A DNA stretch of 64,000 nt. Origin: Eubacteriales bacterium. GTDB taxonomy: Bacteria; Bacillota; Clostridia; Oscillospirales; CAG-272. Location of the stretch: contig JAZOSN010000032.1 in assembly GCA_045657105.1 (NCBI GenBank), positions 12,477 to 76,476 on the forward strand, given 5' to 3'. The position numbers and the translations under genes are program-made. Within the stretch, counting starts at the first letter, position 1, and every line of letters starts with the position of its first letter. Positions 6,994-35,141 of this stretch are shown one piece after another. Below the pieces are notes generated by a model, which worked only from the letters and a program-made list of their open reading frames with translations, did not search any database and was not told where the DNA came from.

Positions 6994-7010
6994 AGTAAAA
7001 TAAAAGAAAA

Positions 7011-7039
7011 AGCTTCTCGCGCGGCGAGAAGCTTTTTTT
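7011..7039 (+). terminator. intrinsic terminator
   Basis: AGCTTCTCGC-GCG-GCGAGAAGCT hairpin followed by T7. Confidence 0.85.
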
Positions 7040-7128
7040 GTAAAATTCTATGTTTCATTTGACTTTTCATTTATTTTGTGTTATACTTGTCGAAGTGTGC
7101 CAAAATAGCTTGAAAGGAATGACTTATC

Positions 7129-8055: not shown

Positions 8056-8090
8056 GTCTGATAGTAAAGTAATTTGCAAAACAATAAATA

Positions 8091-8120
8091 AAACTCCCGA
8101 AAACGGGAGTTTTGTTGTTT
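8091..8120 (+). terminator. intrinsic terminator
   Basis: AAACTCCCG-AAAA-CGGGAGTTT hairpin followed by a T-rich tail. Confidence 0.8.
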
Positions 8121-8217
8121 ACATTGACAAATATATTATCGTGTGATATAATTCTCTCATAATATAATATTTTATATAATATTTTTTGCTTGAAATTATG
8201 TTTTGTTGGGTGTGGTT

Positions 8218-17164: not shown

Positions 17165-17803
17165 ATGAAAACGAAGCTTACAAAAATATATAAGGCACCG
17201 CGTCCGAAAAGAGGACAGGCGGCACTGCCTCGGATCGTGGCGAGAGCTGACGAGCAGTTCGGACGAAAGAATTACGCCGAATATTCGGTAAGAAAAAAGA
17301 TAGAGGGAAGCTATGCGCTGAGCCGCGTGCTTATGATATTTTTTTATATCGTTGCAACGCTTGCATATATCATTTTTTGCTCGGCAGTTAAGATCTTTCT
17401 TTGGTTTCTCGTTGTTCTTCCCGTGTTCGTTATGCTGATCGTCTATCTGACCTGGTGGAGAGTTTCGATAGATTATAAATATACGGTAGATCAAGCCGTT
17501 TTTTGTGTGAAGGCGGTGTATGGCGACAGATACGAGCGTGTCCTTTTTGAAGAAAAAATACGCGAAATCTCGCTTATTGCTCCGTATAAGGACGCCTATG
17601 TATCACAAGTCAATGACTTTATTAAAGACGCCGAAGCGGCGTATGCGATCTCCTCAAAAAAAGCGGACGATATTTATTTTGCCTGCCATACCGACGCGTA
17701 CGGTAAAAAGAAAGCGGTCTTTTTTGAAATGACCTCTCAGGCGCTTGCGGCACTTAAATATTATAACTCAAATGCCACCGTTGCTTCGGATCCAAGAAGA
17801 TAA
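17165..17803 (+). CDS. hypothetical membrane protein
   Basis: GGAGGA RBS and a consensus-like promoter (TTGTAA-17-TATAAT) upstream; two central TM helices; no recognisable family. Confidence 0.5.
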   Translation: MKTKLTKIYKAPRPKRGQAALPRIVARADEQFGRKNYAEYSVRKKIEGSYALSRVLMIFFYIVATLAYIIFCSAVKIFLWFLVVLPVFVMLIVYLTWWRVSIDYKYTVDQAVFCVKAVYGDRYERVLFEEKIREISLIAPYKDAYVSQVNDFIKDAEAAYAISSKKADDIYFACHTDAYGKKKAVFFEMTSQALAALKYYNSNATVASDPRR

Positions 17804-17940: not shown

Positions 17941-18207
17941 ATGGCAGGAAGCAACAAGAACCTCATTCCTGAGGCAAAGGAAGGTCTTAACAAGTTTAAG
18001 ATGGAAGCAGCAGGAGAAGTTGGTGTAAACCTCAAGCAGGGTTACAACGGCGACCTCACCAGCCGTCAGGCAGGTTCCATCGGTGGACAGATGGTTAAGA
18101 ACATCCCTACCATACGAACTATGAAACAGGTCTCTTTCGAGAGAACGAACCGTATCGTAGACGGTCATAAAACCACCGTTCGTTACATAGCGGAGCTGAC
18201 AATTTAA
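17941..18207 (+). CDS. alpha/beta-type small acid-soluble spore protein with an atypical C-terminal tail
   Basis: LIPEAKEGLNKFKMEAAGEVGV and GDLTSRQAGSIGGQMVK are the two conserved SASP blocks; AAGGAG RBS. Confidence 0.8.
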   Translation: MAGSNKNLIPEAKEGLNKFKMEAAGEVGVNLKQGYNGDLTSRQAGSIGGQMVKNIPTIRTMKQVSFERTNRIVDGHKTTVRYIAELTI

Positions 18208-18278: not shown

Positions 18279-18374
18279 AAAAATGTGTTATTAAGTCGAT
18301 TTTTAATTTGCAAAAATGTGCAAACTTGAAAAAATGTGCAAAATACCTGTTGTAAAACTTGAAAAAGTGTGATA
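18279..18374 (+). repeat. four direct copies of AAAAA(T/G)GTG(C/T/A) in the ATPase promoter region
   Basis: AAAAATGTGTTAT at 18279, AAAAATGTGCAAA at 18312 and 18330, and AAAAAGTGTGATA at 18362. The last overlaps the extended -10 TGTGATATAAT. Confidence 0.6.
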
Positions 18375-18401: not shown

Positions 18402-19703
18402 GTGATTAGTATGAAGCGAAACGCGATAGAAGTACTGCTTAAATGGAAAAACGACGAAGAGCGCAAGCCGATGGTGCTAAAGGGTGCCCGTCAGGTCGGT
18501 AAGACTTGGCTTATGAAGGAATTCGGCAGAAGTTATTACGAAAATTACGTATATTTCAACTTTGACGAGGAAGACGAGCTACAGTCTATCTTTGAAACGA
18601 ATAAGAATCCCAAGAGGATCATAGAGCTGCTTTCCTTGGTTGCGGGAGAAAAAATACTTCCCGGTACTACGCTTGTTATATTTGATGAGATACAAGAGTG
18701 CCCGTCTGCGCTCAACGCCCTGAAATATTTTAGGGAAAAGGCAAACGAATACCACGTGATTGCTGCAGGCAGTCTGCTCGGAACGCTCCTTGCTCAGCCG
18801 AAATCCTATCCCGTGGGGATGGTCAATCTGTTGGATATCCATCCGCTGACCTTCGATGAATTTTTGGATGCTACCGATGAGTCGCTGTATGCCTACTATC
18901 AAAGCATCACCAAAGAACAAGTAATCGAAGAAATCTTCCACAATCGCCTGATGGAAGCGTATAATAACTATCTGATCATCGGCGGAATGCCCGAATGCGT
19001 TGCGTCCTGGGTGAAGCATAAGGATCCGGCAAGAATCACGCAGATCCAGAAGGAGCTTGTTCAGATCTACGAAAACGACTTTTCCAAGCATAACGGAAAA
19101 GTGAACAGCGGAAGAATTTTGCAGGTTTTCCGCAGTATCGTAACTCAGCTTGCAAAGCCTAACGAAAAGTTTATGTACGGCGCAGTAAGGGAAGGCGGCA
19201 GAGCGAGAGACTTTGAGGAAGCTATCGAATGGCTCGTCTCTGCAGGGATGCTGAACCGCGTATACAATCTTTCTAAATTGGAGCATCCGCTGTCCGCTTT
19301 TTGTAAGATGGATCAGTTCAAGCTTTTCGTGTTTGATACGGGACTTCTGAAGTATATGGCTGGCATTGATAACAGCGCAATCCTCTTAAAGACTGACTAT
19401 CAATTTAAGGGGCCTTTGACCGAAAATTACGTTCTTCAGCAGCTGATTGGTCAGTTCGACGTGGATCCTCACTATTATTCGGACAGGAGCGGAGAGATCG
19501 ATTTCGTCCTGCAGAACGGCACTGAGGTTATTCCCGTGGAAGCCAAGGGCGGCGAGGACAAATCCGCACCGACATTTAAGAAATACGTAAACGAGCACCT
19601 CCCAAAGCACGCAGTCCGCTTCTCAAAACGCGGCTACCGCAAGGACGGCTATATCACCAATATGCCGCTGTACCTTGCAAGAAGAATGAAAGATTTGCTG
19701 TGA
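18402..19703 (+). CDS. AAA-family ATPase (AAA_14 N-terminus plus DUF4143-like C-terminus)
   Basis: Walker A GARQVGKT and Walker B LVIFDEIQ; the C-terminal half is typical of the DUF4143 ATPase family. Confidence 0.8.
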   Translation: MISMKRNAIEVLLKWKNDEERKPMVLKGARQVGKTWLMKEFGRSYYENYVYFNFDEEDELQSIFETNKNPKRIIELLSLVAGEKILPGTTLVIFDEIQECPSALNALKYFREKANEYHVIAAGSLLGTLLAQPKSYPVGMVNLLDIHPLTFDEFLDATDESLYAYYQSITKEQVIEEIFHNRLMEAYNNYLIIGGMPECVASWVKHKDPARITQIQKELVQIYENDFSKHNGKVNSGRILQVFRSIVTQLAKPNEKFMYGAVREGGRARDFEEAIEWLVSAGMLNRVYNLSKLEHPLSAFCKMDQFKLFVFDTGLLKYMAGIDNSAILLKTDYQFKGPLTENYVLQQLIGQFDVDPHYYSDRSGEIDFVLQNGTEVIPVEAKGGEDKSAPTFKKYVNEHLPKHAVRFSKRGYRKDGYITNMPLYLARRMKDLL

Positions 19704-20545: not shown

Positions 20546-21055
20546 ATGGAAGCCCCAAAACCCCCACTTCTCGTTTACAGAGAAAAGATGTCAGAAGTAC
20601 ATACCCCCGAAGAGATCAAGGCAGCGTTCGACGAAAGCCACTATGCCGTATGCTTTAACTACGATCGTGGTCATGGGCGAGCTAAGCACGAATTGTTCGC
20701 GGCAATATGGGAGGTCAATCCCGATGCGATCATTACCGAAGCGGATCTATGCATTATGGCAGTTGAGCCCATCGTGTGGCGTGATCAGCTCCTGCTGATC
20801 GACAAAAACGGCACCAAGGAAACGGCAAATACGATTGCGAAATTCATGGCGGAATCGGGCATCATTTCTTATGAATACCGCATTGTCGACGAGGCGGGCA
20901 TTAAGGTGTGCTTCGGCTCGATTGACGTAAGAAAAGAATCCCCTGCAGTGCGCTTCAAGTGCAATCTGCTCAATGACGGCAACAAGTTACTTTTGACCGC
21001 AAGGCATATGACAAAAGCGGATAGAGAGAAATTAAAACTGAATAAGGAGAATTGA
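20546..21055 (+). CDS. hypothetical protein
   Basis: AAGGAG RBS, tightly packed behind the previous gene; no recognisable motif. Confidence 0.5.
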   Translation: MEAPKPPLLVYREKMSEVHTPEEIKAAFDESHYAVCFNYDRGHGRAKHELFAAIWEVNPDAIITEADLCIMAVEPIVWRDQLLLIDKNGTKETANTIAKFMAESGIISYEYRIVDEAGIKVCFGSIDVRKESPAVRFKCNLLNDGNKLLLTARHMTKADREKLKLNKEN

Positions 21056-21434: not shown

Positions 21435-22220
21435 ATGACTGAGTCTAAAGATTTCAAAATTTTCACACTTACATATTCCGGAAAATATACCGGAACGGAT
21501 GAAGAGGTCGTGATTCCCGATGGGGTTAATGTCATAAGTGCCGGTGCCTTTGAGGGAAACAAATCGATAAAAAGCGTTGTCATGCCCAATACCGTTACTT
21601 GCATTGATCCTCGCGCTTTTTGTGGTTGTTCTTTCCTTGAAAAGATCGTGCTTTCGGACAATCTGAAATTTATAGAACCGAGTGCATTCGAAGATTGTAT
21701 CAGCCTTTCTCAGGTTAATCTTCCAAGCAGTCTTAAAGCAATCGGTGCCGGCGCTTTTGAGAATAGCGGGCTCACAAATATTGCTTTTCCTGAAAATGTT
21801 AAGATAATGCCATTTGCTTTTAAAGGTTGTTCGCGCATTGAAGAACTCTATGTGCCATCCGGTGTTTCTTTATCTTCCGATGCGTTTAAAGATTGTAAGA
21901 AATTAACCAAGGTCTGTTTTGAACATGGCACATGTTCCTTAGGCTATGGTTCTTTTGCACATTGCAGTAATCTTACAACGGTGTTGCTTCCTGACGGGGT
22001 TACACGCATTGGTGATAATTCATTCTATTTGTGTGATTCGCTCAAAAAAATATATATTCCTTATACCGTTACCTCTATCGGGCGCTCGTCGTTCTATAGA
22101 ATAGGCAAAAAGAACAAGCTGACAATTCAAGCACCGAAAGGCTCGTATGCAATAAAATACGCCAAGAAAATGCATTTCAAATACGAATATGTCGAAGAGA
22201 ATCCATATGTAAATGGGTAA
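21435..22220 (+). CDS. BspA-type leucine-rich repeat (LRR_5) protein, no signal peptide
   Basis: Repeated units of about 23 aa of the form IP..V..IG..AF..C..L..I. Confidence 0.75.
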   Translation: MTESKDFKIFTLTYSGKYTGTDEEVVIPDGVNVISAGAFEGNKSIKSVVMPNTVTCIDPRAFCGCSFLEKIVLSDNLKFIEPSAFEDCISLSQVNLPSSLKAIGAGAFENSGLTNIAFPENVKIMPFAFKGCSRIEELYVPSGVSLSSDAFKDCKKLTKVCFEHGTCSLGYGSFAHCSNLTTVLLPDGVTRIGDNSFYLCDSLKKIYIPYTVTSIGRSSFYRIGKKNKLTIQAPKGSYAIKYAKKMHFKYEYVEENPYVNG

Positions 22221-22234
22221 AATTTAGAGAACAA

Positions 22235-22268
22235 GCCCTCCGCAATTTTGCGGAGGGCCTGTTCGTTT
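22235..22268. terminator. bidirectional terminator between convergent island genes
   Basis: GCCCTCCGCA-ATTT-TGCGGAGGGC hairpin followed by a T-rich tail. Confidence 0.75.
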
Positions 22269-23106: not shown

Positions 23107-25185
23107 TTACGGTTGAACGTCTCCGTCGCTACAGTGGATAGTCTTGCCAAGCGTTCCGCCGCCTGAATCTTTTTCCACCTGTGCCCACTGAGCAACCGTT
23201 CCTTCGTAATGAATCTCTCCGTCAATACTGTTCAATCCATACGTTACGATACGTTTGAGTGATAGTGGAAGGATCAATTTATCCAAAGCATCGCAATTTG
23301 AAAATGCGCTTCTGCCAATGCTTTCGATGTTTGGAGATAAAACTAATTTCTCTAACTTTTTGCATCCGCTGAAAGCATAAGCTCCGATACTTGTTACAGT
23401 GTCGGGCATAACAATTTCCAAAACCTCTGTACATCCCTCAAACATGTAATCATCTATCTCGGTTATTCCCGCGGGAAGAACAATTTTGGTAAGACCGTAT
23501 TTTGCGGCATTTTTATAATCTCCGCGTTGAGCGTAATTATATGCTTTCAAAATCGGCAGGTAGTTAACGTCGTATTCACTCGTGGTATATCCCATATCAC
23601 TGAGCAGCTCATAAGCGGCTTTGTAGTTGCCGCTATCAGCGTATTCAATCGACATCGCCTCTACTTCATCGATAATGGCGGTCATGATGTCTTTGCTGTC
23701 CTTATAATCCATGATGTCGTAAAAGGCATAATAGGCGTCTGAATAGCGCTTGTTTTGATACATCGCTTTGGCTTGAATATATTTTTCTTCTATATCCTGT
23801 GAGAGCATTGCATTTTCGCATTGCTCTATGTAATCTTGACTGTCTTTATAATCAATAATTGCTTCAAATTTCCCAATCGCATCGGAAAAATGTCCGGATA
23901 GGAATAAAGACACTGCTTCTCGGTAAATGGCTTCCAGCTTTTCGTTTTCAAGGGCTTGTTCACACAGAAGAATATATTCTGCACTGTCTTTATAGTTTCT
24001 GATCAGATCGAAAGCGGTAAGTGCTTCCTCAAAATTACCGCTTTCATAAAGTGCTATCGCAGATCGATACCGCTCCTCAGCTGTTGGCTCATTGTTGTTA
24101 TTCTCTGAGTTTTCTCCCAAGGACAGGACTTTCATGAGTCTGCTGTCGGGATACTCCTTTCTTCCGTGTCCGTCATAGCTAATCGCGCTTATCTTAAAGG
24201 TTGCAGAAAGCTCCTTTGCTGTTGCGTAATAAAGCGTCAAAACTTCTTCGCTTGATCTTCTGTCGATATTTAGAGTAAATACGGTGCTGTCTTTGGATAA
24301 TATATCGCCTGACAAGGTTACGATAGATGAATCTAACAAATTACCATTTGCGTCATATATATTTAAATCGCCCTTTATCTGTGTAACATCTTTATACTTT
24401 TCATTGGTTACCTTGATCTTAAATGCAGTAACATATCCGTCTACATATATGGATCTTTCATCAGATTCGCATTTTTCGACAATAGAAATATGAATATCTT
24501 TACAAGTAGAATCAACATGATTGGCACGAATTGTTCCCAAAGAAAAACAAACGCTTACAATTACAACACAAGAAATCAAACATCCCCAAAGAGCGGGTTT
24601 GTTTGTCCTTTCCGAATCGCCAAATATTGCATAATAAATATATCCCGTTGCAACCAAAAGCAATCCTATCCAGAATAACGCCGATATCGGACGCAATGTG
24701 ATCAAAAGTCTTATTGCGCAAGCAGTGGCACAGCACCAGCCAAAGGACACCACGCCGAATCCTATCACTTCGTGATAGGATTGGATTGTGTCAGACAACG
24801 ACAATTCGTAAGTATAGCCGGTATAACCGCGTTTTTTAAACAGTTGATTTAATTTAGCTCTCAGCTTAAATGATGTAGATTTGCCTACATTCATAAGTGT
24901 GACATAAAGATCATATATCTCCTTGGTTTTCTCGGTAACCTCATAGTTTTCAAGAAAATAAATTAAATCAAGAAGCTGATCTGCTGTGCCATTGTCTTGA
25001 TCGATATGTATTTTTTTGATAGCAAACACAATAGCCGCTATGCACGCACAGCACAATGAAATAATGACAATCGCAGCGTTTCCAAAAGGGATATTATCGT
25101 GATTGATGGAAAATAACAAACTCAATATTCCGCATAATATTGTTGATATCACAATAGATATTTGACCCGAGAACTTATTTTTCAT
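23107..25185 (-). CDS. multi-pass membrane protein with repeated xYKDS helical repeats and a C-terminal BspA-type LRR
   Basis: N-terminal TM helices; three repeats ending in YKDS(A/Q/K); C-terminal LRR_5-like units (ITEIDDYMFEGC..., VTSIGAYAFSGC..., IESIGRSAFSNC...). Start placed at 25185 behind an AAAGGAG RBS. Confidence 0.7.
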   Translation of the reverse strand: MKNKFSGQISIVISTILCGILSLLFSINHDNIPFGNAAIVIISLCCACIAAIVFAIKKIHIDQDNGTADQLLDLIYFLENYEVTEKTKEIYDLYVTLMNVGKSTSFKLRAKLNQLFKKRGYTGYTYELSLSDTIQSYHEVIGFGVVSFGWCCATACAIRLLITLRPISALFWIGLLLVATGYIYYAIFGDSERTNKPALWGCLISCVVIVSVCFSLGTIRANHVDSTCKDIHISIVEKCESDERSIYVDGYVTAFKIKVTNEKYKDVTQIKGDLNIYDANGNLLDSSIVTLSGDILSKDSTVFTLNIDRRSSEEVLTLYYATAKELSATFKISAISYDGHGRKEYPDSRLMKVLSLGENSENNNNEPTAEERYRSAIALYESGNFEEALTAFDLIRNYKDSAEYILLCEQALENEKLEAIYREAVSLFLSGHFSDAIGKFEAIIDYKDSQDYIEQCENAMLSQDIEEKYIQAKAMYQNKRYSDAYYAFYDIMDYKDSKDIMTAIIDEVEAMSIEYADSGNYKAAYELLSDMGYTTSEYDVNYLPILKAYNYAQRGDYKNAAKYGLTKIVLPAGITEIDDYMFEGCTEVLEIVMPDTVTSIGAYAFSGCKKLEKLVLSPNIESIGRSAFSNCDALDKLILPLSLKRIVTYGLNSIDGEIHYEGTVAQWAQVEKDSGGGTLGKTIHCSDGDVQP

Positions 25186-25273
25186 AACAAACAAGCTCCT
25201 TTCCGAAATGTATACAGAAATTATACCACATTTTGAATGTCTTTTCAACAGTTATTAGTTATCCAAACTGCTA

Positions 25274-26353
25274 TCAATTTGTTTTAAACAGAGAGGAATA
25301 ATAGACCTGATACCAATTAAGAATAATGGAATATTTCAATTCCAACACCGCAAGAGCCTTTGTTGACATATAATGCGTTTTTCCGATAAATCCGCAAAAC
25401 CAATCGTCAAGACCAAGCGTTGAAAGCGTTTGATTGGTGTAATTGTCCATTCCATGTTCAAGGTAATAGCCACACCGAGCTTTGTTTGCTGCTTCATAGG
25501 CAAAGCCCATATCGTAAAAGTAGCAATCTTTCATCGCGTCGCGGATGGCCATAAACACCTCGTCGCGCGTGGCGGGGATATCGGATAGAGAGCAAACGCC
25601 GTCTGCTATCAGATGCTCCGCGTTCTGCGTCCAAGTGTTAGTGCCGTGGGAAAGGCCAATCAGCTTCAAAAGCTCGTGATACGTTTGTGGATAAGTGAGC
25701 GCAATCATCTGCTTAATTACTTTCTCACCGCCAATACCTGCTAATTTCTCAAAATTTCCCGTCAAAAGTCGGTGCTTGACCTCGCGGTCGTTCAAGTCAA
25801 TGTCATCCATACAAACTCCCGTAGCCTTTTCGCGTCGCTTGCAAATGTTGGTCGTATATAACAGCGATTTTTGATAATGTGAGAAGGTCGCCTCGGACAG
25901 CGCAAGATAACTTTCGTCGGTCATATCTGCGACTCTGAGCTTTTGGGCATAGGGTAGATAGGTTTCAAAGGGAATGTCAAAGCCGTCGGCTTTCATTCTT
26001 TCGCCGCACGCGCAGGTGTGGTCACGCAGATCGAATACACATTTGCCGTTCAACCATTCCACTGTCTTGCATTTGGGGCAATAGTAGTGCGCGGGGAGCG
26101 GATTTTCGTCTGTCGCACCAAGCAGATATGCCACAAGGCAGGAGGCAACCGTGTTTTTGACAACCATTTGTTCATTCGCTTGCTTTACTTCGGCACGGAG
26201 CCTGAAAAGATCGTAAAAGTATTTTCCAACCTCGTATTGCATAAAGGCTTGTTTTTCGCTATAAAAGCGGTTAACGATACACAGATCAGGCATATCACCG
26301 TAAAGCTCAAATATGCGTTTGTACGCTCTATCCCAGATTTCTTTTTCGGTCAT
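25274..26353 (-). CDS. shortened PolC-like protein (PHP-domain Zn-finger segment plus downstream helical segment); probably not a polymerase
   Basis: ENPLPAHYYCPKCKTVEW, CACGERMKADGFDIPFETYLPY and IGLSHGTNTWTQNAEHLIADGVCSLSDIPATRDEVF parallel PolC segments recalled from memory (NPLPPHYVCPNCK, DIPFETFLGF, SGLSHGTDVWLGNAQELI...CTLSEVIGCRDDIM). At 359 aa it is far shorter than PolC. Confidence 0.6.
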   Translation of the reverse strand: MTEKEIWDRAYKRIFELYGDMPDLCIVNRFYSEKQAFMQYEVGKYFYDLFRLRAEVKQANEQMVVKNTVASCLVAYLLGATDENPLPAHYYCPKCKTVEWLNGKCVFDLRDHTCACGERMKADGFDIPFETYLPYAQKLRVADMTDESYLALSEATFSHYQKSLLYTTNICKRREKATGVCMDDIDLNDREVKHRLLTGNFEKLAGIGGEKVIKQMIALTYPQTYHELLKLIGLSHGTNTWTQNAEHLIADGVCSLSDIPATRDEVFMAIRDAMKDCYFYDMGFAYEAANKARCGYYLEHGMDNYTNQTLSTLGLDDWFCGFIGKTHYMSTKALAVLELKYSIILNWYQVYYSSLFKTN

Positions 26354-27339
26354 ATTTCAATCCCCGCAATTCTTTTTCCTTCTTTGGTATAATTCAAAGA
26401 TCCGTATATGTTCCTTGCCTCGTTCTCACAAAGCATAATTCTTTGCGCGCCAAGCAAGAGAGGGAGGTCGATTTCATCTTTGAGGTAGCGGCTAATTGGG
26501 ATGAGTAGTCGTTCCTCGTCGCAAAGCTCGCTACGCACATACTCCAAATCCATATAATTGTGAATGCACTCGTGATATGCCACACTGTCACGGTCAATAA
26601 AATATCCGTATGCCGTCATGTCGCTGCCATCTGTCATCGGACGTTCACCCTCGGTACAAGTAGACGTGAGCACGAACAGATCTGCAAAGGTGGTGGGGCG
26701 CGTATATTTTCCAAGTACGGTTTTTAAAATATCCCCTTTTTTGAACGGTGTCGGGAAGGAAAACCACATATTTCGGAATACCTCTTGGAAAATTTCTGTA
26801 TACTTCACGTCAGAAAGATAACGGCTTTCATCAACTCGCACGATTTCCTTTTCAAGATTGAAACGAACGAAAATCTTTATATCCACCTTTCCAATATAAG
26901 TCTTCACGAATTCTATGAAATTTGGCTGCGGTATATCAATATCATTAACTTTCATAGAAGTTACAGAGAACGAATATGCCTCTTCAAAGGTGTGAAAGAG
27001 TGTAGTCTCCTCATACCAATTATCATCAAAATACTCTCGATAGGAATATACGGCATTCGGCTCTTTCTGAAAAAATTCTTGAATCAAATAATTTTCAATT
27101 TTCATATATCTTCTCAAAAAACGATGAAGCAATCGTTGCGGAAGATTAAAACGCCCTGCGGGAATGACGCAATCTTCAGAATTATCAAGAATATTTAGCC
27201 ATGCCGTATGCTTTTCCTCAAGCGTATGGTTTTTGCTCTGCCACACGAGCCATGCGGATTCAAGTGCAGTGGGTTCGTAGCCGATCTTTTCCCAATGCGC
27301 ACGAATGTCTTGCGAGTTAATAAAATCATAAATCTTCAT
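26350..27339 (-). CDS. hypothetical protein
   Basis: Start placed at the ATG at 27339 behind an AAGGAAAA RBS, 13 nt after the upstream stop; the stop overlaps the next start (ATGA-type overlap at 26350-26353). Confidence 0.55.
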   Translation of the reverse strand: MKIYDFINSQDIRAHWEKIGYEPTALESAWLVWQSKNHTLEEKHTAWLNILDNSEDCVIPAGRFNLPQRLLHRFLRRYMKIENYLIQEFFQKEPNAVYSYREYFDDNWYEETTLFHTFEEAYSFSVTSMKVNDIDIPQPNFIEFVKTYIGKVDIKIFVRFNLEKEIVRVDESRYLSDVKYTEIFQEVFRNMWFSFPTPFKKGDILKTVLGKYTRPTTFADLFVLTSTCTEGERPMTDGSDMTAYGYFIDRDSVAYHECIHNYMDLEYVRSELCDEERLLIPISRYLKDEIDLPLLLGAQRIMLCENEARNIYGSLNYTKEGKRIAGIEI

Positions 27340-27352
27340 TTTTAATTTTCCT

Positions 27353-27733
27353 TTATTTTTGACGCAATAATAAATAATCATAATGTGCAGATCCGTCGTT
27401 AACGATTCGAATTGAAAGATTTTTTCCAAAAATATTGAATTCCGATTCAATCAATTCTATCAGCTTTGGCTCATTTAAGGTGGGATTAAGATAAATCGTG
27501 ACTTTCTTCTTTTTGATCTCCACACGCCCACGCGGATAATAATTATACAGATGTCCGTTCGTGATGTTGCGATAAAGCTTCGCCCACTCTGCTTTGTGAT
27601 TGAAATTTTCACCGGACTTTGATGAATATTCAACCGCTTCAAGTGCATTTCCATATTCATCGCAAGCAACCTTCCGTGTAATCAACCTTCCTTGCTGAGG
27701 ATCGCACCAAAATATTCCTTTATATAATTCCAT
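27353..27733 (-). CDS. hypothetical protein (126 aa)
   Basis: An ORF in operon context; features GIFWCDP and YNYYPRGRVEI segments that I cannot assign to a family. Confidence 0.5.
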   Translation of the reverse strand: MELYKGIFWCDPQQGRLITRKVACDEYGNALEAVEYSSKSGENFNHKAEWAKLYRNITNGHLYNYYPRGRVEIKKKKVTIYLNPTLNEPKLIELIESEFNIFGKNLSIRIVNDGSAHYDYLLLRQK

Positions 27734-27796: not shown

Positions 27797-28420
27797 CTAA
27801 AGATCTTCAAAGCGAATTTTGTTCATTTCGGCACATTTTTCCGCACACGAGCCGCTGTGACCCTTGACGACGAGATCGGGGTGTACATACCCTGAAATCT
27901 GACGCGGCATCGGGCTGCCGTCGTTAAGTGTTTTGCCGAATGCCGCGGGTTCAAAAACTGTATTTTCCCCTAAAACGGTTATTTCGCGAAGCTTTTCACA
28001 TATTCCGAAAGCATTTCCTCGCACAAGCTCAAGCGACTTGGGAAGTGTAATTTTGCGAATCGAAGAGCCTGAAAACGCACCCACGTCAATCACAAGAATA
28101 CCCTCGGGAATCGTAAGTGAGTCAAGTGTCGCATTGTACCCAAAGGTACACGCTCCGATAACCTCGACAGAACCGTCGCTTGGAATGGTACATTGGTTAA
28201 GTCCCAAGACAAGTGTCCTTGTGTCTCGGTGAATGAGACAACCGTTCGTGTATGAAAAATCGGTATTCCCCTCAGCTACTTTGATCGTTTCAACACCGTC
28301 AAAGGCATACGCCATAAGCAAGGTTTCCGAAACACTTTCCGCTTCTGCGGGGATGGTCAGAACACCATCGCCGTCATTCAAAATATCGATAATAACTCCC
28401 GATTCAATTACTGTTTTCAT
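27797..28420 (-). CDS. BspA-type leucine-rich repeat (LRR_5) protein, cytoplasmic
   Basis: Repeats such as VEVIGACTFGYNATLDSLTIPEGILVIDVGAFSGSSIRKITLPKSLELVRGNAFGICEKL; no signal peptide. Confidence 0.7.
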   Translation of the reverse strand: MKTVIESGVIIDILNDGDGVLTIPAEAESVSETLLMAYAFDGVETIKVAEGNTDFSYTNGCLIHRDTRTLVLGLNQCTIPSDGSVEVIGACTFGYNATLDSLTIPEGILVIDVGAFSGSSIRKITLPKSLELVRGNAFGICEKLREITVLGENTVFEPAAFGKTLNDGSPMPRQISGYVHPDLVVKGHSGSCAEKCAEMNKIRFEDL

Positions 28421-28489: not shown

Positions 28490-29092
28490 TTATTTCCATC
28501 TTTCATCCGCCCAATCTATTGCTTCGTTTCTGCCCATATCAAGCAGACATGCTCGGTATCCATCTGCATACTGTGCAGGAATGATCTTAACTACTTTGCT
28601 TCCGTTTCCGTCATAGAAGCTGACACTTACCGTATCTTCCGTTTCTTGTCTTATGATAAAGCCCGAGGTTATCTTTCTCCTTTCATATCCCTCGATCGGC
28701 GTAACGGAATAATAGGAATACAGTCCTTCCTCAGAGCAATCCCATGTATCTACGATCGTTCCGTTTATTACTGCACTCCAGTGCCCGGACATCGAAATAA
28801 TATATCGTCCCTTGGGATGGATTTCACAAAATTCATGGGCACTTACACGAGAACCGTCATCCTTTTTAGGTATAGCTACTCTTGGGAATCCCAAAACTTT
28901 TTCAACATAGCTTCTTGGGTTTCCAGGAGAATTGAAGTCCTTTGCTCCCGTTATCTTTTTGTGAGCATTAAGACCTCGTTGCACATCCATATAGTCCATT
29001 CCGCAGGTGACTGAAATTGCTCGTTTTACACAGTCATCAACAAGCAAATGCCTCGGATGAGCGTTGTAGTATCTGAAGTTACTGTTCTCCAT
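28490..29092 (-). CDS. hypothetical protein with a possible Cys-His-Asp (papain-like) triad
   Basis: DDCVKRAISVTCG near the N-terminus and SGHWSAVINGTIVDTWD about 85 aa later resemble papain-like/C39-like peptidase cores (by eye only). Confidence 0.45.
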   Translation of the reverse strand: MENSNFRYYNAHPRHLLVDDCVKRAISVTCGMDYMDVQRGLNAHKKITGAKDFNSPGNPRSYVEKVLGFPRVAIPKKDDGSRVSAHEFCEIHPKGRYIISMSGHWSAVINGTIVDTWDCSEEGLYSYYSVTPIEGYERRKITSGFIIRQETEDTVSVSFYDGNGSKVVKIIPAQYADGYRACLLDMGRNEAIDWADERWK

Positions 29093-29095
29093 ATT

Positions 29096-29356
29096 TTAGC
29101 TCCTTTCTTTCATAATGCGGTTATATTCATCACGGTATTCTCGCAGTGTAGCACCGTTTGCGGCAGAATAGTGATCCTCTGGGAATCCGTCGTATTCCCA
29201 GCCGCAGTGTCCGCAGATGTAGTAATTATCGAGTGTTTTTTGCCCGCAAACAGGGCAAAGTATAACGGTGTAAATATCGTCTACGACGGTCCCGAGCTCA
29301 GGTAACTCGCATCCGACAAATTCCCCGCGTATTGCGGCGTAAATGTTTTCTTTCAT
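29096..29356 (-). CDS. CPCC-family cysteine-rich (zinc-ribbon) protein
   Basis: CPVCGQKTLDNYYICGHCGWEYDGFPED matches the Cys_rich_CPCC pattern. Confidence 0.7.
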   Translation of the reverse strand: MKENIYAAIRGEFVGCELPELGTVVDDIYTVILCPVCGQKTLDNYYICGHCGWEYDGFPEDHYSAANGATLREYRDEYNRIMKERS

Positions 29357-29365
29357 AAACTCTCC

Positions 29366-29692
29366 TTAAAATCTGTATTTGGCAGCAGTCTGCGCAAGCC
29401 ATTCTTCTGCTTTTCTTACACCGCTTTCCGAGCTTTCAAATTCTGCTCGTTCAAAATCGGTTTTGTTTCCGCCAAGATGCCAAGGCTGGATTATATAGCT
29501 TTCGGCAATCAAACGAAATGTGCTTTCTTCGCCGCTTGATATGTCCACGTAAACGCGGTAGTTAAACGTTCGTGCACTCACACACCCTTGATCGGGAAGT
29601 GTGCCCATAGAGCCCGAGTAGGTGTTTGTAACAAAACGCCCTTCGTGCTTGCTTACAAGCCAATGATAATGCGTCAGATCAATCTTCGACAT
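29366..29692 (-). CDS. hypothetical protein
   Basis: GGAGG RBS 6 nt before the ATG at 29692; overlaps the 3' end of the upstream gene by 14 nt (translational coupling). Confidence 0.5.
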   Translation of the reverse strand: MSKIDLTHYHWLVSKHEGRFVTNTYSGSMGTLPDQGCVSARTFNYRVYVDISSGEESTFRLIAESYIIQPWHLGGNKTDFERAEFESSESGVRKAEEWLAQTAAKYRF

Positions 29693-30335
29693 AGTTAACC
29701 TCCACATTTATGACTTGTACCTTGTTGTGCTTCAACTTTTGGGTGGGATAATTCGGGCATACAGCAATAAATACCTGTCTGCCGAGTCTTGCAAGTTCGT
29801 CAATATAAGGAGAAACGTCTACAGATTCATCAATACGATCAAAAAAGTGGTAAATAAATATAGGACGAGAATCACCGTTGTTCGTATCTATATTTAATGT
29901 TGTTAAGAATTTTTCGAAAGACAATAGAACTTTTTCTGACATCGGCAGGCACGAGGTAGATGAACGCATATCCTCATCGGCGAAAACGTGGCAGGTGTTA
30001 ATGTTACGGGCTCGCCTTTTTTTCTCGTACTCTTGAGTATCAGGCAGAGAAAAAAATCTTTTTTCTTTCGTGAAGTTAACACCCATAGTGTGTTCTGCAT
30101 CCGCCGAGTAGATATAGCAAATGTCATACTCCTTTTTGTCTATTTCAACACACCCGTGGATAATAGATTCGTGAGGTATGTGGATACCTGTGGCTTGATC
30201 CCCTCTGTACGTTCCCGTCATTGCCTCTATAAATAGCATATATTTGTCGCTGTTAGTTCCCTTAAAGCACATAATCGGTGTTTCAAGGGTTATCTCTCCG
30301 CTGCTATCATTAAAATCAATTCGTTTTACCTTCAT
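29679..30335 (-). CDS. hypothetical protein, possible degenerate ABC/SMC-like ATPase
   Basis: The N-terminal strand-loop FKGTNSDKYMLFIEAM sits where a Walker A would be but lacks GK(S/T). The C-terminal PIFIYHFFDRIDESVD...LARLGRQVFIAV resembles Walker B/D-loop. Confidence 0.45.
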   Translation of the reverse strand: MKVKRIDFNDSSGEITLETPIMCFKGTNSDKYMLFIEAMTGTYRGDQATGIHIPHESIIHGCVEIDKKEYDICYIYSADAEHTMGVNFTKEKRFFSLPDTQEYEKKRRARNINTCHVFADEDMRSSTSCLPMSEKVLLSFEKFLTTLNIDTNNGDSRPIFIYHFFDRIDESVDVSPYIDELARLGRQVFIAVCPNYPTQKLKHNKVQVINVEVNYVED

Positions 30336-30456: not shown

Positions 30457-32028
30457 TTACGTGTCTATTCTGAAATCAATTTCGGGGATACACTTTTTTA
30501 ACTTCTCGATATCGATACAGTCGGCAGTTTCTTGATCAACTCGCAAAATTTGAAGATTTTTAGCTTCATATATTGGCGAAAGATCCAACTTTTGCGCACC
30601 GTGCAGTTGTAATCTTGTAAGGGCGTTGCATTTATTAATGGGTGAAAGATCTGCGGTTCCGGGTTTTATAATATCAAGCTCTTTCAAGCGCGGAAGATCT
30701 TTGATAAATGAAATATCAATTTTATCTCCGCCGCCAATATACACCTTCTCGCTGTTGATATAATCTGACAGCATATTCCAATCGGTAACGACCGATGCGT
30801 CGTAAATTTTAATAGTTTTAACAGCTTCCACTCTTTCCGATAGAGACATCGCCTTGTGTTTTTTGAAATTACTTAATCCTACATTTAGCATTTTACCGAT
30901 CAGTAAACAGTTTTTAGATATTGTAGTATTACACGAGTAAAATTCTATATCTTGGTCGTTTTGAATATATCGAATCTTCATCATCCGCGCCATGCTTTGC
31001 AATCTATATCGCAGATCTTGTGGCTCGATTACATCAACACTATCTGCATGGTGTAGTGCAAAGCGGAAAACATCTTCGAAATTCGCGCTGAACGTGATCT
31101 CTCGAAAAACAGAATTTGTTTTTGTAATATTGACCCTCGTGCCAAACTCATCAATAACATCACCGATGCCGCTCTCGGTTGCGCGCAACTTTATATATCC
31201 GATTTCGCCTTCTTGCATATAGGGGTGCTGAAGCAAATATTCACGAACATCTTTGTAAAGCTCGGATTCAGCCTTTGAATCAAGGATAGTAATCTCCGTC
31301 ATTTTGTCAATTCTGTAGTGTCTTAACTTTTTTTCCCCGAGTATCGTTCCGATTACATAATATCTACCATGCGATGTAACTATGTGATACGGATTGAAAG
31401 TGATTTTATCATTTGAAATTCGGTGCAGCTCCTTGTCGGATGCATATTGACATTCATAGAATGAAACCTGTCTGCGTACTCCACGTGAATGGGCTACATT
31501 TTCTTCGGTTTTAAAATTTAGAGCTTCACTAAGCGCATTAAGATTATCCGCAAAAGTATTACTTTCAGAAGCAAAAGCCTTGCTTTCACTGAATTCTCCA
31601 ACGTTGCTTGCGTTTTTATTTCTGGAAAATCTGGTCAGCTTTTCGACAAGCTTTTTGGAGGCTTCTGCATCAAGATTTTTATCAAATTTTACATGATCGA
31701 TCAAAAGCAAAAGTTCGCCTTTGGAGAAACGTTCTTTTTGTGCAAGGTAAATGTCGGTCATAACACCCTTAGTGTTCTTACGTTTTTCCTTACTGTATTT
31801 AACGGCATAAGGATTATTACCTTTTTCGTCACAAAGCTCTTTGAATTTTTCAATATTCTCGCGAACGGTCTTTGGCGTTACTTCTATAGCAAATTTTTCT
31901 TTAAGTCTGTTTGCTATTTCGGTACATGTCATTTTTTTGATCTTTCCGGTTCTTATATCTAGTCGTCCGGTTTCTTTTTGCAGTATATTGAGTATTCCTA
32001 CTGCAACCATTCTTTTATCACTGCTCAT
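30457..32028 (-). CDS. HTH-WYL domain transcriptional regulator with a C-terminal leucine-rich-repeat extension
   Basis: AGGAGG RBS before the ATG at 32028. N-terminal wHTH-like MTCTEIANRLKEKF..., WYL-like core GRYYVIGTILGEKKLRHYRIDKM, and C-terminal LRR units (LKELDII..., LTRLQLHG..., LQILRV). Confidence 0.7.
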   Translation of the reverse strand: MSSDKRMVAVGILNILQKETGRLDIRTGKIKKMTCTEIANRLKEKFAIEVTPKTVRENIEKFKELCDEKGNNPYAVKYSKEKRKNTKGVMTDIYLAQKERFSKGELLLLIDHVKFDKNLDAEASKKLVEKLTRFSRNKNASNVGEFSESKAFASESNTFADNLNALSEALNFKTEENVAHSRGVRRQVSFYECQYASDKELHRISNDKITFNPYHIVTSHGRYYVIGTILGEKKLRHYRIDKMTEITILDSKAESELYKDVREYLLQHPYMQEGEIGYIKLRATESGIGDVIDEFGTRVNITKTNSVFREITFSANFEDVFRFALHHADSVDVIEPQDLRYRLQSMARMMKIRYIQNDQDIEFYSCNTTISKNCLLIGKMLNVGLSNFKKHKAMSLSERVEAVKTIKIYDASVVTDWNMLSDYINSEKVYIGGGDKIDISFIKDLPRLKELDIIKPGTADLSPINKCNALTRLQLHGAQKLDLSPIYEAKNLQILRVDQETADCIDIEKLKKCIPEIDFRIDT

Positions 32029-32072
32029 ATTTGCCTCCTGTAGTTTTGTATCACTATTATAGTAAGCACAAA

Positions 32073-32088
32073 GTGCGAAAAAACGCAC
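32073..32088 (-). promoter_or_regulatory. operator-like inverted repeat GTGCG-T6-CGCAC (copy 3)
   Basis: Lies 11 nt upstream of the minus-strand TATAAT (32056-32061) in front of the WYL regulator gene. A second extended -10 (TGTGATATAAT, minus strand) lies just upstream. Confidence 0.55.
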
Positions 32089-32330
32089 ATTGATATTATA
32101 TCACAGATCTTTTAATTTGTCAAATTCCTGAAGCGCCATGCGGAGGGTGTTGCCACTGTAATATTTGACTTTAAGTGAAGGAGATCGTCACAGTTTGATA
32201 AGGACGTTTTCTACATATTAGACGATGTTGAAATACGGGTTCCCCCTTATAGGGTAATTATTGAATTTGGGTTGAAAACGTTCTTTTTTGATATGATTCC
32301 GTCCAAATCCGTATTGATTACGTAAGTAGA

Positions 32331-33259: not shown

Positions 33260-33266
33260 GTATTAT

Positions 33267-33304
33267 GGGCGGCGAAATTTATTTTGCCGCCCGTGACTTT
33301 TTTT
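33267..33304 (+). terminator. intrinsic terminator after the small ORF
   Basis: GGGCGGC/GCCGCCC stem followed 4 nt later by T8. Confidence 0.55.
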
Positions 33305-33314
33305 GTGAAGTCTA

Positions 33315-33343
33315 TTGAAAAAGTTAAATCTTTGTGATATAAT
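33315..33343 (+). promoter_or_regulatory. sigma-A type promoter for the recombinase gene
   Basis: TTGAAA (33315-33320), a 17-nt spacer and TATAAT (33338-33343) with an upstream TGTGA extended -10. Confidence 0.55.
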
Positions 33344-33383
33344 GAAACAAGGTAATGATATAACGAACTTTTGGAGGAAAGAT

Positions 33384-35141
33384 ATGGATATACATAATAT
33401 TCGTCAGGAAATTCGATATAAGTCTATATTCGATGTGCCTATGCGCGTGACCTACTATGCCCGCGTTTCATCGGAGTCGGACGAGCAGTTAAATTCTCTG
33501 GGCAACCAGATCAATTATTACGAAGACTTTATCAAGAAGAATCCCGCTTGGGTGTTTATCAGCGGATATATCGACGAGGGTCTGTCCGGTATTTCCACGA
33601 AAAAGCGCGAGAACTTCAACCGCATGATCGAAGATGCGGCACAAGATAAGTTTGACCTTATTATCACAAAGGAAATCTCCCGTTTTGCCCGTAACACGCT
33701 GGACTCCATTCAGTACACCCGCCAGCTTCTCGGCTACGGCGTAGGCGTGTTTTTTCAGAACGATAATATCAACACTCTCGACGAGGATTCCGAGCTGAGA
33801 CTCTCGATTATGTCCTCTATCGCGCAGGACGAGCTGAGAAAGCTTTCCAGCCGCGTGAAATTCGGTCATCAGCAGGCGATCAAGCAGAATGTGGTTCTCG
33901 GCAACAATCGCATCTTCGGCTACAAGAAGAACAACAAACGCCTTGTGATTGACGAGGATGAAGCTCCGATGGTCAGAGAATTGTTCGAGCTTTATGCCAC
34001 CGACAACTACAGCATGAAGCAGATCGAAAAGATCTTCTGGGACAAGGGCTACCGCAATCACAACGGCAAGAAGATAGCACACTCCACCATGGCAAATATG
34101 ATCGCCAACCCCAAATACAAGGGCTACTACGTGGGCAACAAAGTGAAGGTCGTTGATATGTTCACCAAAAAGCAGAAGTTCCTGCCGCCCGAGGAATGGG
34201 TCATGTTCAAGGATGAAAGCGGTGAGATCGTACCGGCAATTGTTAGCGAAGAGCTTTGGGAAAGCGCCAATGTAGTTCTACGCCGCAGAAGCGAGGACGT
34301 GAAGAACCGTCAAGGCATTTGCAATCACGCCAATCTGCTTACGGGAAAGCTTTTCTGTACCGACTGCGGTACGCCTTATTACCGCAGAGAGTCCAAGGAC
34401 AAAGAGGGCAACAAAAACAGCAAGTGGGTATGCTCAAACAAAATCAACAGCGGCAAGGATGCCTGCGCTTCGTTCCCCGTTTACGAGGAGGAGATCAAGC
34501 CGGTCCTGTTCGAGGTGTTTAGGGACACCAAGGACAGCTCCGCCGCAATGATGCTTGAATACGAAAAGCTTTATCTGTCTATGACTGCAAACGGCAAGCT
34601 TGACAAAATGATCGCCAAGCGGGAGGGAATCATTGATCTTGCAAACAAGAAAAAGAGCGCGCTTCTGAAACTCGTTGCCGAAGGGAATATCAACGGCAAG
34701 GACTTTAAGGAAATGACCGAAGCGTGCAACAAAGAGATCCACGATGCCGAGGCAGAGCTGATTGAACTGAAAAATCAGCAGGAGTCTAGCGAGGAATTTA
34801 AGAAGCATATGGAAAAGGTGCGTGCCGTTCTCAGGGCTGCCGAGCGTGATATCGAAATGGGCGAGATTTCCAAGGATTTTATTGACACCTTTATTGATAA
34901 GATTTTTGTCACACCTTTTGAGGACAAAACCGTGGAGCTTCGCATCAAGATCTTCACCGGAGAAACCACCGAAAGATACCTCAAAAAACTCAAAGGTCGT
35001 GCTTGTATCATCACTACACCATCTGCCCGAAGCGAAGAAAATGCCGTAAATACAGGGGGCTCCGACCCTCAAAGTCGTACGGGACACACGATTAAGAAGA
35101 TGGTCGAGAAGTACGAGAACGACCTTAAAAACAACAAATAA
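33384..35141 (+). CDS. large serine recombinase (resolvase N-terminal domain, recombinase domain, zinc ribbon, coiled coil)
   Basis: GGAGGA RBS before the ATG at 33384. N-terminal RVTYYARVSSESDEQLNSLGNQ (catalytic Ser region), ITKEISRFARN, a Cys-rich CTDCGTPYYRR...WVCSNK segment, and a long coiled-coil tail. Confidence 0.9.
   Translation: MDIHNIRQEIRYKSIFDVPMRVTYYARVSSESDEQLNSLGNQINYYEDFIKKNPAWVFISGYIDEGLSGISTKKRENFNRMIEDAAQDKFDLIITKEISRFARNTLDSIQYTRQLLGYGVGVFFQNDNINTLDEDSELRLSIMSSIAQDELRKLSSRVKFGHQQAIKQNVVLGNNRIFGYKKNNKRLVIDEDEAPMVRELFELYATDNYSMKQIEKIFWDKGYRNHNGKKIAHSTMANMIANPKYKGYYVGNKVKVVDMFTKKQKFLPPEEWVMFKDESGEIVPAIVSEELWESANVVLRRRSEDVKNRQGICNHANLLTGKLFCTDCGTPYYRRESKDKEGNKNSKWVCSNKINSGKDACASFPVYEEEIKPVLFEVFRDTKDSSAAMMLEYEKLYLSMTANGKLDKMIAKREGIIDLANKKKSALLKLVAEGNINGKDFKEMTEACNKEIHDAEAELIELKNQQESSEEFKKHMEKVRAVLRAAERDIEMGEISKDFIDTFIDKIFVTPFEDKTVELRIKIFTGETTERYLKKLKGRACIITTPSARSEENAVNTGGSDPQSRTGHTIKKMVEKYENDLKNNK

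Follow-up and report, generated by a model that had tools for sequence, protein, structure and literature searches.

A short, apparently non-catalytic paralogue of the replicative polymerase PolC carried as cargo on a clostridial integrative element

What would a bacterial genome, or a mobile element within it, do with parts of a replicative DNA polymerase that have lost the active site? The question is raised by a stretch of 64,000 nucleotides (the window) from an Eubacteriales bacterium (GenBank assembly GCA_045657105.1, contig JAZOSN010000032.1, positions 12,477 to 76,476). A preliminary description of this DNA, prepared from the letters alone, pointed to a stand-alone, shortened open reading frame (ORF) that resembles PolC and lies within an island, and this holds: the ORF has clear PolC matches and is found in a low-GC region with a gene for a large serine recombinase. 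The gene, termed mini-PolC here, is almost certainly a shortened, non-catalytic paralogue of the PolC-type DNA polymerase III alpha subunit. It is maintained under purifying selection and is carried as cargo on an integrative element.

The likeness of mini-PolC to PolC is colinear and far above chance level. The NCBIfam PolC model PRK00448 is matched with E=1.4e-44 (query residues 3-135 on model positions 830-966) and TIGR01405 with E=3.9e-42 (residues 209-354 on positions 924-1061). Sequence matches in the PDB are to the PolC enzymes of G. kaustophilus (3f2b, E=9.6e-32) and E. faecium (9qpc, 1e-29), each aligned as two blocks. Membership of NF001688 and TIGR01405 reflects the score of a full NTD-OB-PHP(Exo)-Pol3-(HhH)2 architecture, where NTD denotes the N-terminal domain and HhH a helix-hairpin-helix, and mini-PolC, which covers only about positions 830-966 and about 1150-1300 of the PolC model, scores 152.1 and 144.1 bits against the respective equivalog cut-offs of 873 and 1043 bits. 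The Pfam fingers domain PF17657 (DNA_pol3_finger) passes its gathering threshold over residues 174-251 (25.6 versus 22 bits) whilst PF07733 (DNA_pol3_alpha) falls below (14.3 versus 23.9 bits), unlike in several relatives with longer middle segments. The N-terminus corresponds to the first residues of the polymerase core (PF07733 position 7), and Pfam detects no helix-turn-helix (HTH) domain in the window protein. When 1.84 billion representatives were searched exhaustively, even the best full-length PolCs shared just about 30-35% identity with it over the matched blocks, which indicates that mini-PolC is an old, perhaps ancient, paralogue rather than a piece of the resident polC. The annotation 'DNA polymerase III alpha subunit (gram-positive type)', which such genes occasionally receive automatically, is misleading.

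Which parts of the polymerase have been kept? PolC comprises approximately 1,400-1,500 residues. Alignment of 19 full-length PolCs with the different short classes reveals that mini-PolC retains two parts, the N-terminal palm half in residues 1-137 and the fingers in residues 160-359, approximately, in the same three-dimensional arrangement as in the PolC structures 3F2B and 3F2C and, from E. faecium, 9QPC, 9QRL and 9QRN. Everything N-terminal of the core (the N-terminal domain, OB, PHP and exonuclease) is missing. Within the core, the stretch from the catalytic DxD dyad to the third catalytic aspartate, 122 residues in all full-length PolCs examined, is reduced to about 24, so that about 100 residues carrying the catalytic strands and the thumb have been excised. 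The last roughly 130 residues of PolC, with the (HhH)2 and clamp-binding region, are also absent; full-length forms end there in a QLSLF-type motif. The C-terminus of mini-PolC coincides with the end point of all mini forms.

The preliminary description had recognised that the N-terminal HxH motif of PHP and the exonuclease are lacking, and the three segments it quoted do have PolC counterparts by alignment, namely the Zn finger, GLSHGTDVWLGNAxELI...CRDDIM and YMFPKAHAAAY; the dnaE used there for comparison is present, from 61204 to the window end. It was mistaken in placing the Zn finger in the PHP domain. The finger belongs to the N-terminal palm, just before the DxD strand, and longer relatives have their PHP domain entirely ahead of the core (in P0202 it spans residues 212-358 with the core starting at 479). 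Nor are palm and fingers lacking, as had been stated, since the N-terminal palm half and most of the fingers, including the above-threshold PF17657, are kept.

The aspartate triad is present in all 19 full-length PolCs, and in the E. faecium enzyme the catalytic dyad is formed by D972 and D974 (PMC12592400). In mini-PolC the dyad is missing, as the preliminary description had noted of a DID-type site, and the segment reads KLRVADMTD, in which only Asp143 is nearly invariant, with the caveat that its register differs by 1-3 residues among three alignments. The position of the third aspartate is taken by the family-invariant Gln161, and Ser163 is likewise invariant. At most one of the three catalytic carboxylates therefore survives in the window family, Asp143 as a vestige. 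The triphosphate-binding Gly/Ser loop, VGSRGSVGSS in PolC, has become MVVKNTVASC. With the dyad, the third aspartate and this loop gone, it is well supported that mini-PolC would be unable to polymerise or proofread DNA. The earlier statement that it cannot be a polymerase thus agrees with the residue comparison, and with the loss of thumb, PHP domain, exonuclease and clamp-binding C-terminus.

The nucleotide pocket is similarly affected. The E. faecium study describes H1185, F1276, H1280 and Y1284 as an aromatic pocket 'strictly conserved in PolC' (PMC12592400). Just one of the four is kept, His236 corresponding to H1185 in the fingers motif GLSHGT.TW..NAE (residues 233-246); F1276 is replaced by Ser330, H1280 by Leu334 and Y1284 by Glu338. 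The degenerate pocket motif YMSTKALAVLE (residues 328-338) stands in place of YMFPKAHAAAY. Both the GLSHGT histidine and the tyrosine equivalent to Y1274, which mini-PolC shares, are PolC-specific. An F-to-S change at F1276 lowers the susceptibility of E. faecium PolC to PolC inhibitors (PMC12592400), and the invariant Ser330 (codon 25364-25366) occupies that very position, a mere curiosity in a protein that is no polymerase.

Against these losses stands a set of positions common to every class of relative. Cys92, Cys95, Cys114 and Cys116, the ligands of a Zn finger predicted from sequence, are invariant in the window family and in all classes, and around them the pattern N84-P-L86..H89-Y90-C92..C95...D108...C114-x-C116...G124..P128-x-E130 is shared. 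Y18-G19, R29 and E33 are common in the palm helices, and in the fingers P222, L228, G233-L-S-H236-G-T238..W241..N244-A245, R263-D264, R293-x-G295, W318 and Y328. With PolC conservation of 90% or more as the threshold, 96 positions align to the query. Of these, 35 are unchanged in the window family, 43 are variable and 18 are swapped, meaning that another residue stands there and itself reaches 90% conservation or more within that family. The swapped positions include K66, C72, D143, H159, Q161, S163, S330 and L334, and many lie at the former active site. For this reason the region looks retuned, not decayed. Might it have become the active site of a new enzyme, built on a remodelled cleft with Lys66, Cys72, Asp143, His159, Gln161 and Ser163? 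That the 18 family-invariant replacements cluster at the old active site and include cysteine, histidine, aspartate and serine would fit such a proposal. We nevertheless consider it very improbable because there is no likeness to any other enzyme fold, the segment beside Asp143 is predicted to be disordered and the cleft residues are not common to the other mini-PolC classes.

A first AlphaFold model, calculated from a shallow family alignment, left the two halves unplaced, with a predicted local distance difference test score (pLDDT) of 70 and a query-normalised template modelling score (TM-score) of 0.37. It was superseded by a model using an alignment deepened with HTH-fused relatives, which gives a confident single domain (pLDDT 91.2, predicted TM-score 0.90). 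Residues 143-155, exactly at the excision scar, are the sole disordered stretch. A Foldseek search of the PDB, with TM-scores normalised to the query, matched this model to 3f2b, 3f2c, 9qpc, 9qrl and 9qrn with E=1e-16 to 1e-17 and TM-scores of 0.77-0.81, while DnaE-type polymerases score 0.53-0.56; no fold other than PolC and DnaE-type polymerases was matched. The values against five PolC structures indicate that the retained parts would pack as they do in PolC.

Could the gene nonetheless be a functionless pseudogene, or an assembly fragment of a full-length polC? Its partial coverage of PolC and missing active site are compatible with that, and the preliminary description had itself named such a fragment as an alternative. 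A protein search with mini-PolC gave 338 clusters (at 90% identity) with E<=1e-3, and the best 120 of these are 54-100% identical to it and, save a few truncated entries, 349-376 residues long. Loci were collected from species-representative genomes (11) and contig look-ups (four), with ten distinct intact copies entering the selection test. The Nei-Gojobori ratio of nonsynonymous to synonymous substitution rates (dN/dS) spans 0.08-0.21 over 55 pairs with a median of 0.12, the median dS being about 1. It is similarly low in each region: 0.10 in the N-terminal palm with the Zn finger, 0.14 in both fingers and tail, and 0.16 in the linker. All 11 copies are intact, at least 120 clusters share start, end and length, and identity to any PolC is low. 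The gene also has its own ribosome-binding site, GGGGA, ahead of an ATG that shares four nucleotides with the stop codon of the upstream ORF (ATGA), to which mini-PolC is evidently translationally coupled. The confident compact fold points to clean excision rather than truncation. We consequently reject the pseudogene reading, which is scarcely credible; the similarity to PolC on which the preliminary description relied is highly significant in sequence (E=1e-44) and in structure alike.

Mini-PolC is one member of a much wider family. Among the best 150 representatives at 50% identity listed by the exhaustive search are proteins that share a common fingers end point (...WYK.xYPxEF) and differ in what lies upstream. 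Counting the clusters that cover both ends of the core, there are 33 of stand-alone minis (331-497 residues), 32 of minis with an N-terminal extension of 75-90 residues, 42 of mid-size or unclassified forms, many of which start with a PHP domain, and 19 of full-length PolCs. The extension is an XRE-type HTH domain (HTH_3, E=1e-15); one protein has instead an FtsK-gamma winged helix, matched below threshold. An XRE HTH stands at the N-terminus of about a third of the related clusters. The HTH-fused family alone amounts to at least 807 clusters at 90% identity, annotated just as 'helix-turn-helix domain-containing protein'. Every PolC and most PHP-containing forms have an intact catalytic triad, which nearly all stand-alone and HTH-fused minis have lost, and the middle segment shrinks from approximately 120 residues in PolC to 98 or fewer in the minis. 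The four cysteines are unchanged across all classes. Stand-alone clusters are 30-45% identical among themselves. In a crude neighbour-joining tree the window family falls inside a 35-member clade composed entirely of minis, with other minis mixed amongst longer forms.

All mini-PolCs examined are from Clostridia, and many of the inspected loci are on integrative elements. Named sources are metagenome-assembled genomes of Clostridia, Eubacteriales, Oscillospiraceae, Ruminococcaceae and Lachnospiraceae, several from yak or roe-deer gut. A phage or plasmid origin was considered and rejected: tblastn searches of phage and plasmid collections returned only PolC-type genes with full-length palm and thumb and at most 35% identity, and no close relative was found in the phage, plasmid, IMG/VR or BFVD collections. 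In BFVD the matches are confined to polymerases of 790 residues or more with TM-scores of 0.55 or less, and the single IMG/VR match is a phage-borne, compact PolC-like protein of 683 residues (L024, 9281-11332). This protein has lost the PHP HxH motif, has no exonuclease and a shortened thumb, and keeps the DxD dyad and third aspartate; it may represent a minimal active polymerase as well as an intermediate of the reduction series. At the other extreme is a sub-family of approximately 330 residues (P0450 and P0453; L031, 7001-7996) that is further reduced and keeps the Zn finger and a VRKGKY motif. It is very abundant in metagenomes, one of its 90%-identity clusters having 3,273 member sequences.

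If mini-PolC acts neither as a polymerase nor as another enzyme, what might it do? The preliminary description had proposed that it mimics a PolC surface, as a decoy, inhibitor or sensor, or that it recruits replisome partners of the host. The interpretation that we prefer, with the chances about evenly balanced, is that it is a non-catalytic, PolC-derived binding or sensor module, which would act through binding instead of catalysis. A remnant of the polymerase cleft would be lined by Lys66, Cys72, Asp143, His159, Gln161, Ser163, Arg293, Tyr328 and Ser330, a set invariant in the family and unlike that of PolC. This cleft, or the face of the Zn finger, might recognise a nucleotide-like molecule, a nucleic-acid end or a protein, and contact between proteins would then relay the signal to the products of its operon. 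In the HTH-fused sister family the module would be the input, or sensor, domain of a one-component transcription factor. Input in such regulators is normally the task of the domain other than the HTH, and this, with the family-invariant replacements in the former cleft, makes a role in recognition or sensing the most economical reading.

Several points weigh against a sensor module. The conserved family residues may be purely structural, and the co-conserved partner proteins have no recognisable function. The contexts of distant mini-PolCs differ, so there is possibly no single function. In the fusions the module could serve for dimerisation or as a second DNA-binding domain. The pocket motifs are, in addition, more degraded in the window family than in the HTH-fused forms, which disfavours a ligand resembling a deoxynucleoside triphosphate here. 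An extension of the sensor interpretation is rather doubtful: mini-PolC would be a sensor module that gut Clostridia and the mobile elements they carry have widely re-used, and its origin would be the nucleotide- and template-binding cleft of the replicase. Stand-alone copies would report a signal related to replication or to an invader (a nucleotide, a DNA end or an anti-replisome protein) to variable partners in conflict systems, for defence or counter-defence, and in HTH-fused copies the same signal would control transcription.

The genomic contexts bear on these ideas and on two others. HTH-fused forms are solitary genes beside other XRE regulators, LRR_5 proteins or a serine recombinase, and distant stand-alone forms occur in long one-directional arrays with differing neighbours. 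In locus L025 these are PARG-like, metallophosphatase, Cas4-like/DUF2779 and PcfJ genes. In L027 and L028, which belong to divergent sub-families, a gene for a soluble FtsH-like protein (AAA plus Peptidase_M41, 439 residues) is directly upstream (5536-6855 and 5590-6909, respectively) with DUF4143 ATPase and McrBC-like genes nearby. Locus L029 has a DnaB_C-like ATPase, two tandem, overlapping mini-PolC genes (5734-7014 and 7001-8122), LRR_5 proteins and a DUF4368 serine recombinase, and P0233 is a DnaB_C-like ATPase fused directly to an inactive mini-PolC. The common denominators are cargo regions of mobile elements, frequent P-loop NTPase neighbours and variable partners.

Such ATPases recall a replication modulator that docks on DnaN, DnaX/tau, DnaE, SSB or a helicase and either recruits it to the element or brakes host replication. 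The protein is derived from a replicase, the DnaB_C-like ATPase gene is two genes upstream in L029, and AAA ATPases are directly upstream in L001 as well as in L027 and L028. We judge this role distinctly unlikely, as mini-PolC is without the C-terminal part of PolC, including its terminal clamp-binding motif, and without the DNA-binding OB, (HhH)2 and thumb, and neither a replication initiator nor an origin was recognised in the island.

The conflict-type genes (McrBC-like, Cas4-like, PARG-like and the FtsH-like protease) are more in keeping with a decoy or guard that titrates or senses an anti-replicase factor, be it a phage or plasmid protein, a toxin or an inhibitor, and so protects PolC or triggers neighbouring genes. 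The model faithfully reproduces the core of PolC rather than that of DnaE (TM-scores of about 0.8 versus about 0.55), the PolC-specific Zn finger and His236 are kept, and the mobile island also has a WYL regulator and a PADLOC candidate defence ATPase, PDC-S01. A decoy of one essential target should, though, stay close to it, and the minis differ from one another by 55-70%, resemble any PolC to about 30-35% only and have three of the four strictly conserved pocket residues replaced. No cassette partner matches a PADLOC model, HTH fusions do not fit the idea, and the phage and viral contigs searched hold no close relative. On this balance a decoy is unlikely, and we return to a binding or sensor module as the working interpretation.

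Comparison with known systems is informative. Exonuclease-less and otherwise shortened PolC variants are known in Clostridia and Negativicutes (Timinskas et al. 2014, PMC3919608). These and the compact PHP-palm-fingers forms carried by plasmids and phages (class E, for example the L024 protein) share with mini-PolC the lineage, the C-terminal end point and a setting in Clostridia and on mobile elements. They differ in keeping the PHP domain, a full palm and thumb (approximately 120 residues) and mostly the aspartate triad, none of which mini-PolC keeps, and may thus still act as polymerases; in appearance they are intermediate stages in one series of reductions. The HTH_3(XRE) fusions (for example P0143 and P0343) contain the same inactive module at about 30% identity, with Zn finger and finger motifs kept, the catalytic aspartates lost, a shortened thumb and hosts that are likewise gut Clostridia. 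They are distinguished by a DNA-binding domain of approximately 80 residues at the N-terminus, by being solitary regulator genes, by a longer middle segment (51-88 residues) and by retaining more of the pocket motifs (the G of RG, FPKAH).

A parallel by analogy only is ImuB of the ImuA-ImuB-DnaE2 mutasome, another polymerase paralogue whose catalytic carboxylates have disappeared and which selection maintains. It is usually described as an adaptor between partners; it retains a motif for binding the clamp and acts together with an active polymerase from a neighbouring gene, and nothing comparable is seen beside mini-PolC. It is also of the Y-family, with another fold. ImuB is required for induced mutagenesis though it is not itself the polymerase (PMC3919608).

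Why has such a large family escaped notice? A survey of 2014 removed C-family sequences lacking an intact active site before analysis (PMC3919608), and one of 2026 discarded 'strongly diverged or truncated sequences' before phylogenetic analysis (PMC12926913); both recognise four C-family groups only, PolC and DnaE1-3, all taken as active enzymes. These filters hid a deep radiation of small, catalytically dead PolC paralogues, a module re-used in thousands of proteins, with dozens of stand-alone clusters at 50% identity, the HTH-fused clusters and one divergent sub-family of 330 residues with over 3,000 sequences. Full-text searches of the literature for PolC-like, inactive and paralogous forms found no description of inactive paralogues of the bacterial replicase family. 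As far as these searches show, and accepting that inactive polymerase paralogues such as ImuB are known, a dead, miniaturised C-family paralogue with HTH fusions is undescribed. Should the sensor reading be correct, a C-family DNA polymerase would for the first time have given rise to a non-catalytic signalling family. A sensor or adaptor role would also supply a new type of domain with which many 'hypothetical' and 'HTH domain-containing' proteins of gut microbiomes could be annotated, and might link the biology of mobile elements with replication status.

The neighbours of mini-PolC are themselves conserved. A protein of 190-218 residues, a CPCC protein and a protein of 187-200 residues are encoded upstream in the same order in the 13 related loci with enough flanking sequence, the one partial exception being L003, where a relative of the 218-residue protein was not detected. 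This cassette order holds down to 57% mini-PolC identity. Nine loci also have the convergent 169-residue gene downstream of mini-PolC. In 11 of 12 loci a gene for a protein of approximately 155 residues is directly upstream and overlaps mini-PolC by four nucleotides. It is found in L005 (9543-10004) and at the equivalent position in ten other loci and is absent from the window, where, as in L007, the 329-residue ORF takes its place. The smaller protein has a Cys-X5-Arg signature (CQCDFGQSRS) and might be a CX5R phosphatase-like partner, the matches being weak (Pfam DSPc, E=1.7e-4 and below threshold; DUSP12, E=0.17). The 329-residue ORF has an orthologue in L007 (70% identity) and a distant relative in L001.

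A polymerase split in trans, with the missing palm supplied by an upstream partner, was suggested by the motif 'IPDIDIE' in the partner of most loci and 'NDIDIP' in the 329-residue ORF of the window. It was rejected: a profile of the missing PolC palm and thumb segment matches none of the upstream partners, scoring 3.5 bits or less on all, and the 'NDIDIP'-type motif is not conserved within the 329-residue family.

In the window, mini-PolC is the last of the tightly packed cargo ORFs of a minus-strand array (Table 1), which runs from a WYL/WCX regulator through proteins of 218, 113, 86, 200, 207, 126 and 329 residues to mini-PolC, then to proteins of 713 and 276 residues, the last a coiled-coil protein, and a terminator.

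Table 1. Features of the window in and around the mini-PolC gene, numbered from the first letter of the window.
Feature	Position	Strand	Remarks
mini-PolC coding sequence	25274..26353	minus	359 residues plus stop; ORF, PolC homology, AlphaFold (AF2) model, dN/dS
N-terminal palm helices, residues 1-78	26120..26353	minus	Y18-G19, R29, E33 kept
Zn-finger module, residues 84-131	25961..26104	minus	NPLPAHYY-CPKC...D...CAC-G...DGFDIPFET; alignments
Excision scar, residues 138-157	25883..25942	minus	stands where PolC has the DxD strand, remaining palm core and thumb
SHYQKSLL, residues 158-165	25859..25882	minus	remnant of the KLD(I/L)LGH strand bearing the third catalytic Asp
Fingers domain, residues 166-359	25277..25858	minus	Pfam, PolC alignments
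Large serine recombinase (Resolvase + Recombinase + Zn_ribbon_recom)	33315..35141	plus	right island edge, beside ligA
Consensus sigma-70-type promoter	32095..32123	minus	12/12 hexamer matches, TG extension; pattern match only
WYL/WCX-domain putative regulator	30457..32088	minus	head of gene array
218-residue protein	29679..30335	minus	co-conserved with mini-PolC
113-residue ORF	29366..29707	minus	present in part of the related cassettes
86-residue Cys-rich CPCC zinc-ribbon protein	29096..29356	minus	co-conserved with mini-PolC
200-residue protein	28490..29092	minus	accompanies mini-PolC in every related locus with enough flank
207-residue BspA-type LRR_5 protein	27797..28420	minus	in some related cassettes
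126-residue ORF	27353..27733	minus	same operon; no known domain; not found in related loci
Upstream 329-residue ORF (ATG at 27339)	26350..27339	minus	4-nucleotide overlap with mini-PolC; no known domain
Promoter-like site	25248-25220		near the gene for the 713-residue protein
713-residue membrane/TPR-like/LRR_5 protein	23107..25248	minus	directly downstream of mini-PolC
Three 144-nucleotide direct repeats	23684-23994		in the gene for the 713-residue protein
Bidirectional terminator-like hairpin, strong	22229..22264		closes the minus-strand array
BspA-type LRR_5 protein	21435-22220	plus
169-residue ORF, convergent	20546..21055	plus	no known domain; near mini-PolC in 9 related loci
AAA_14/DUF4143-type ATPase	18402-19703	plus	PADLOC candidate defence family PDC-S01, E=2e-167
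Three direct repeats of 17-18 nucleotides	18304-18371		just 5' of the ATPase start
ORF, small acid-soluble spore protein-like	17941-18207	plus	left island edge; by eye
16-nucleotide direct repeat, two copies	17668-17683 and 33273-33288		bracket the island
Hairpin with the right repeat copy	33263-33296		just upstream of the serine recombinase gene

Among the array products, the unnamed ORFs have no usable match in Pfam (partners searched to E 5), PADLOC or, by single-sequence and profile searches, the PDB. PADLOC-DB v2 leaves mini-PolC and five cassette partners unmatched and, in the island, matches only the WYL regulator and the PDC-S01 ATPase; PHROGs has no match to mini-PolC. The 218-residue protein, with no match in any database searched, has a Walker-B/D-loop-like motif (RPIFIY.FFDR.DE..D) and no P-loop lysine, and we guess that it may be a degenerate ABC ATPase. 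The 200-residue protein matches phrog_3754, a family without assigned function, and has the invariants Cys21...His104-Trp...Asp115-Thr-Trp-Asp-Cys; a papain-like fold and triad would be a guess.

The island is approximately 17 kb long with a GC fraction of 0.37-0.44, compared with about 0.47-0.50 in its flanks, which are of housekeeping type (MatE and pyridoxal phosphate enzyme genes to the left; ligA, obg, prfA, sua5 and gyrA to the right). Large serine recombinases are encoded within 10 kb of mini-PolC in the window and in L001, L006 and L029, and L001 is flanked by TnpV and DUF6809 genes, which are typical of clostridial integrative elements. The order of mini-PolC followed by a large LRR_5 protein recurs in L005, L008 and L029.

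Some minor features of the region may be recorded. There are three BspA-type LRR_5 proteins in the island, and LRR_5 genes also follow mini-PolC genes in L005, L008, L016 and L029. The 713-residue protein has predicted membrane helices as well as the direct repeats in its gene. By eye, the C-terminus of the WYL/WCX regulator is LRR-like, and WYL genes are also near mini-PolC relatives in L018 and L031. The AAA_14/DUF4143-type ATPase, which is found near relatives in L027 and L028 too, is preceded by short repeats with an operator-like look. The small ORF at the left island edge resembles alpha/beta-type small acid-soluble spore proteins (SASP), and a Pfam SASP-annotated gene adjoins the cassette in the unrelated locus L003 (7000-7206). 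Finally, the two copies of the 16-nucleotide repeat that bracket the island are identical at 15 of 16 positions; the repeat could be due to chance or related to an attachment site, and its right copy lies inside a hairpin just upstream of the recombinase gene.

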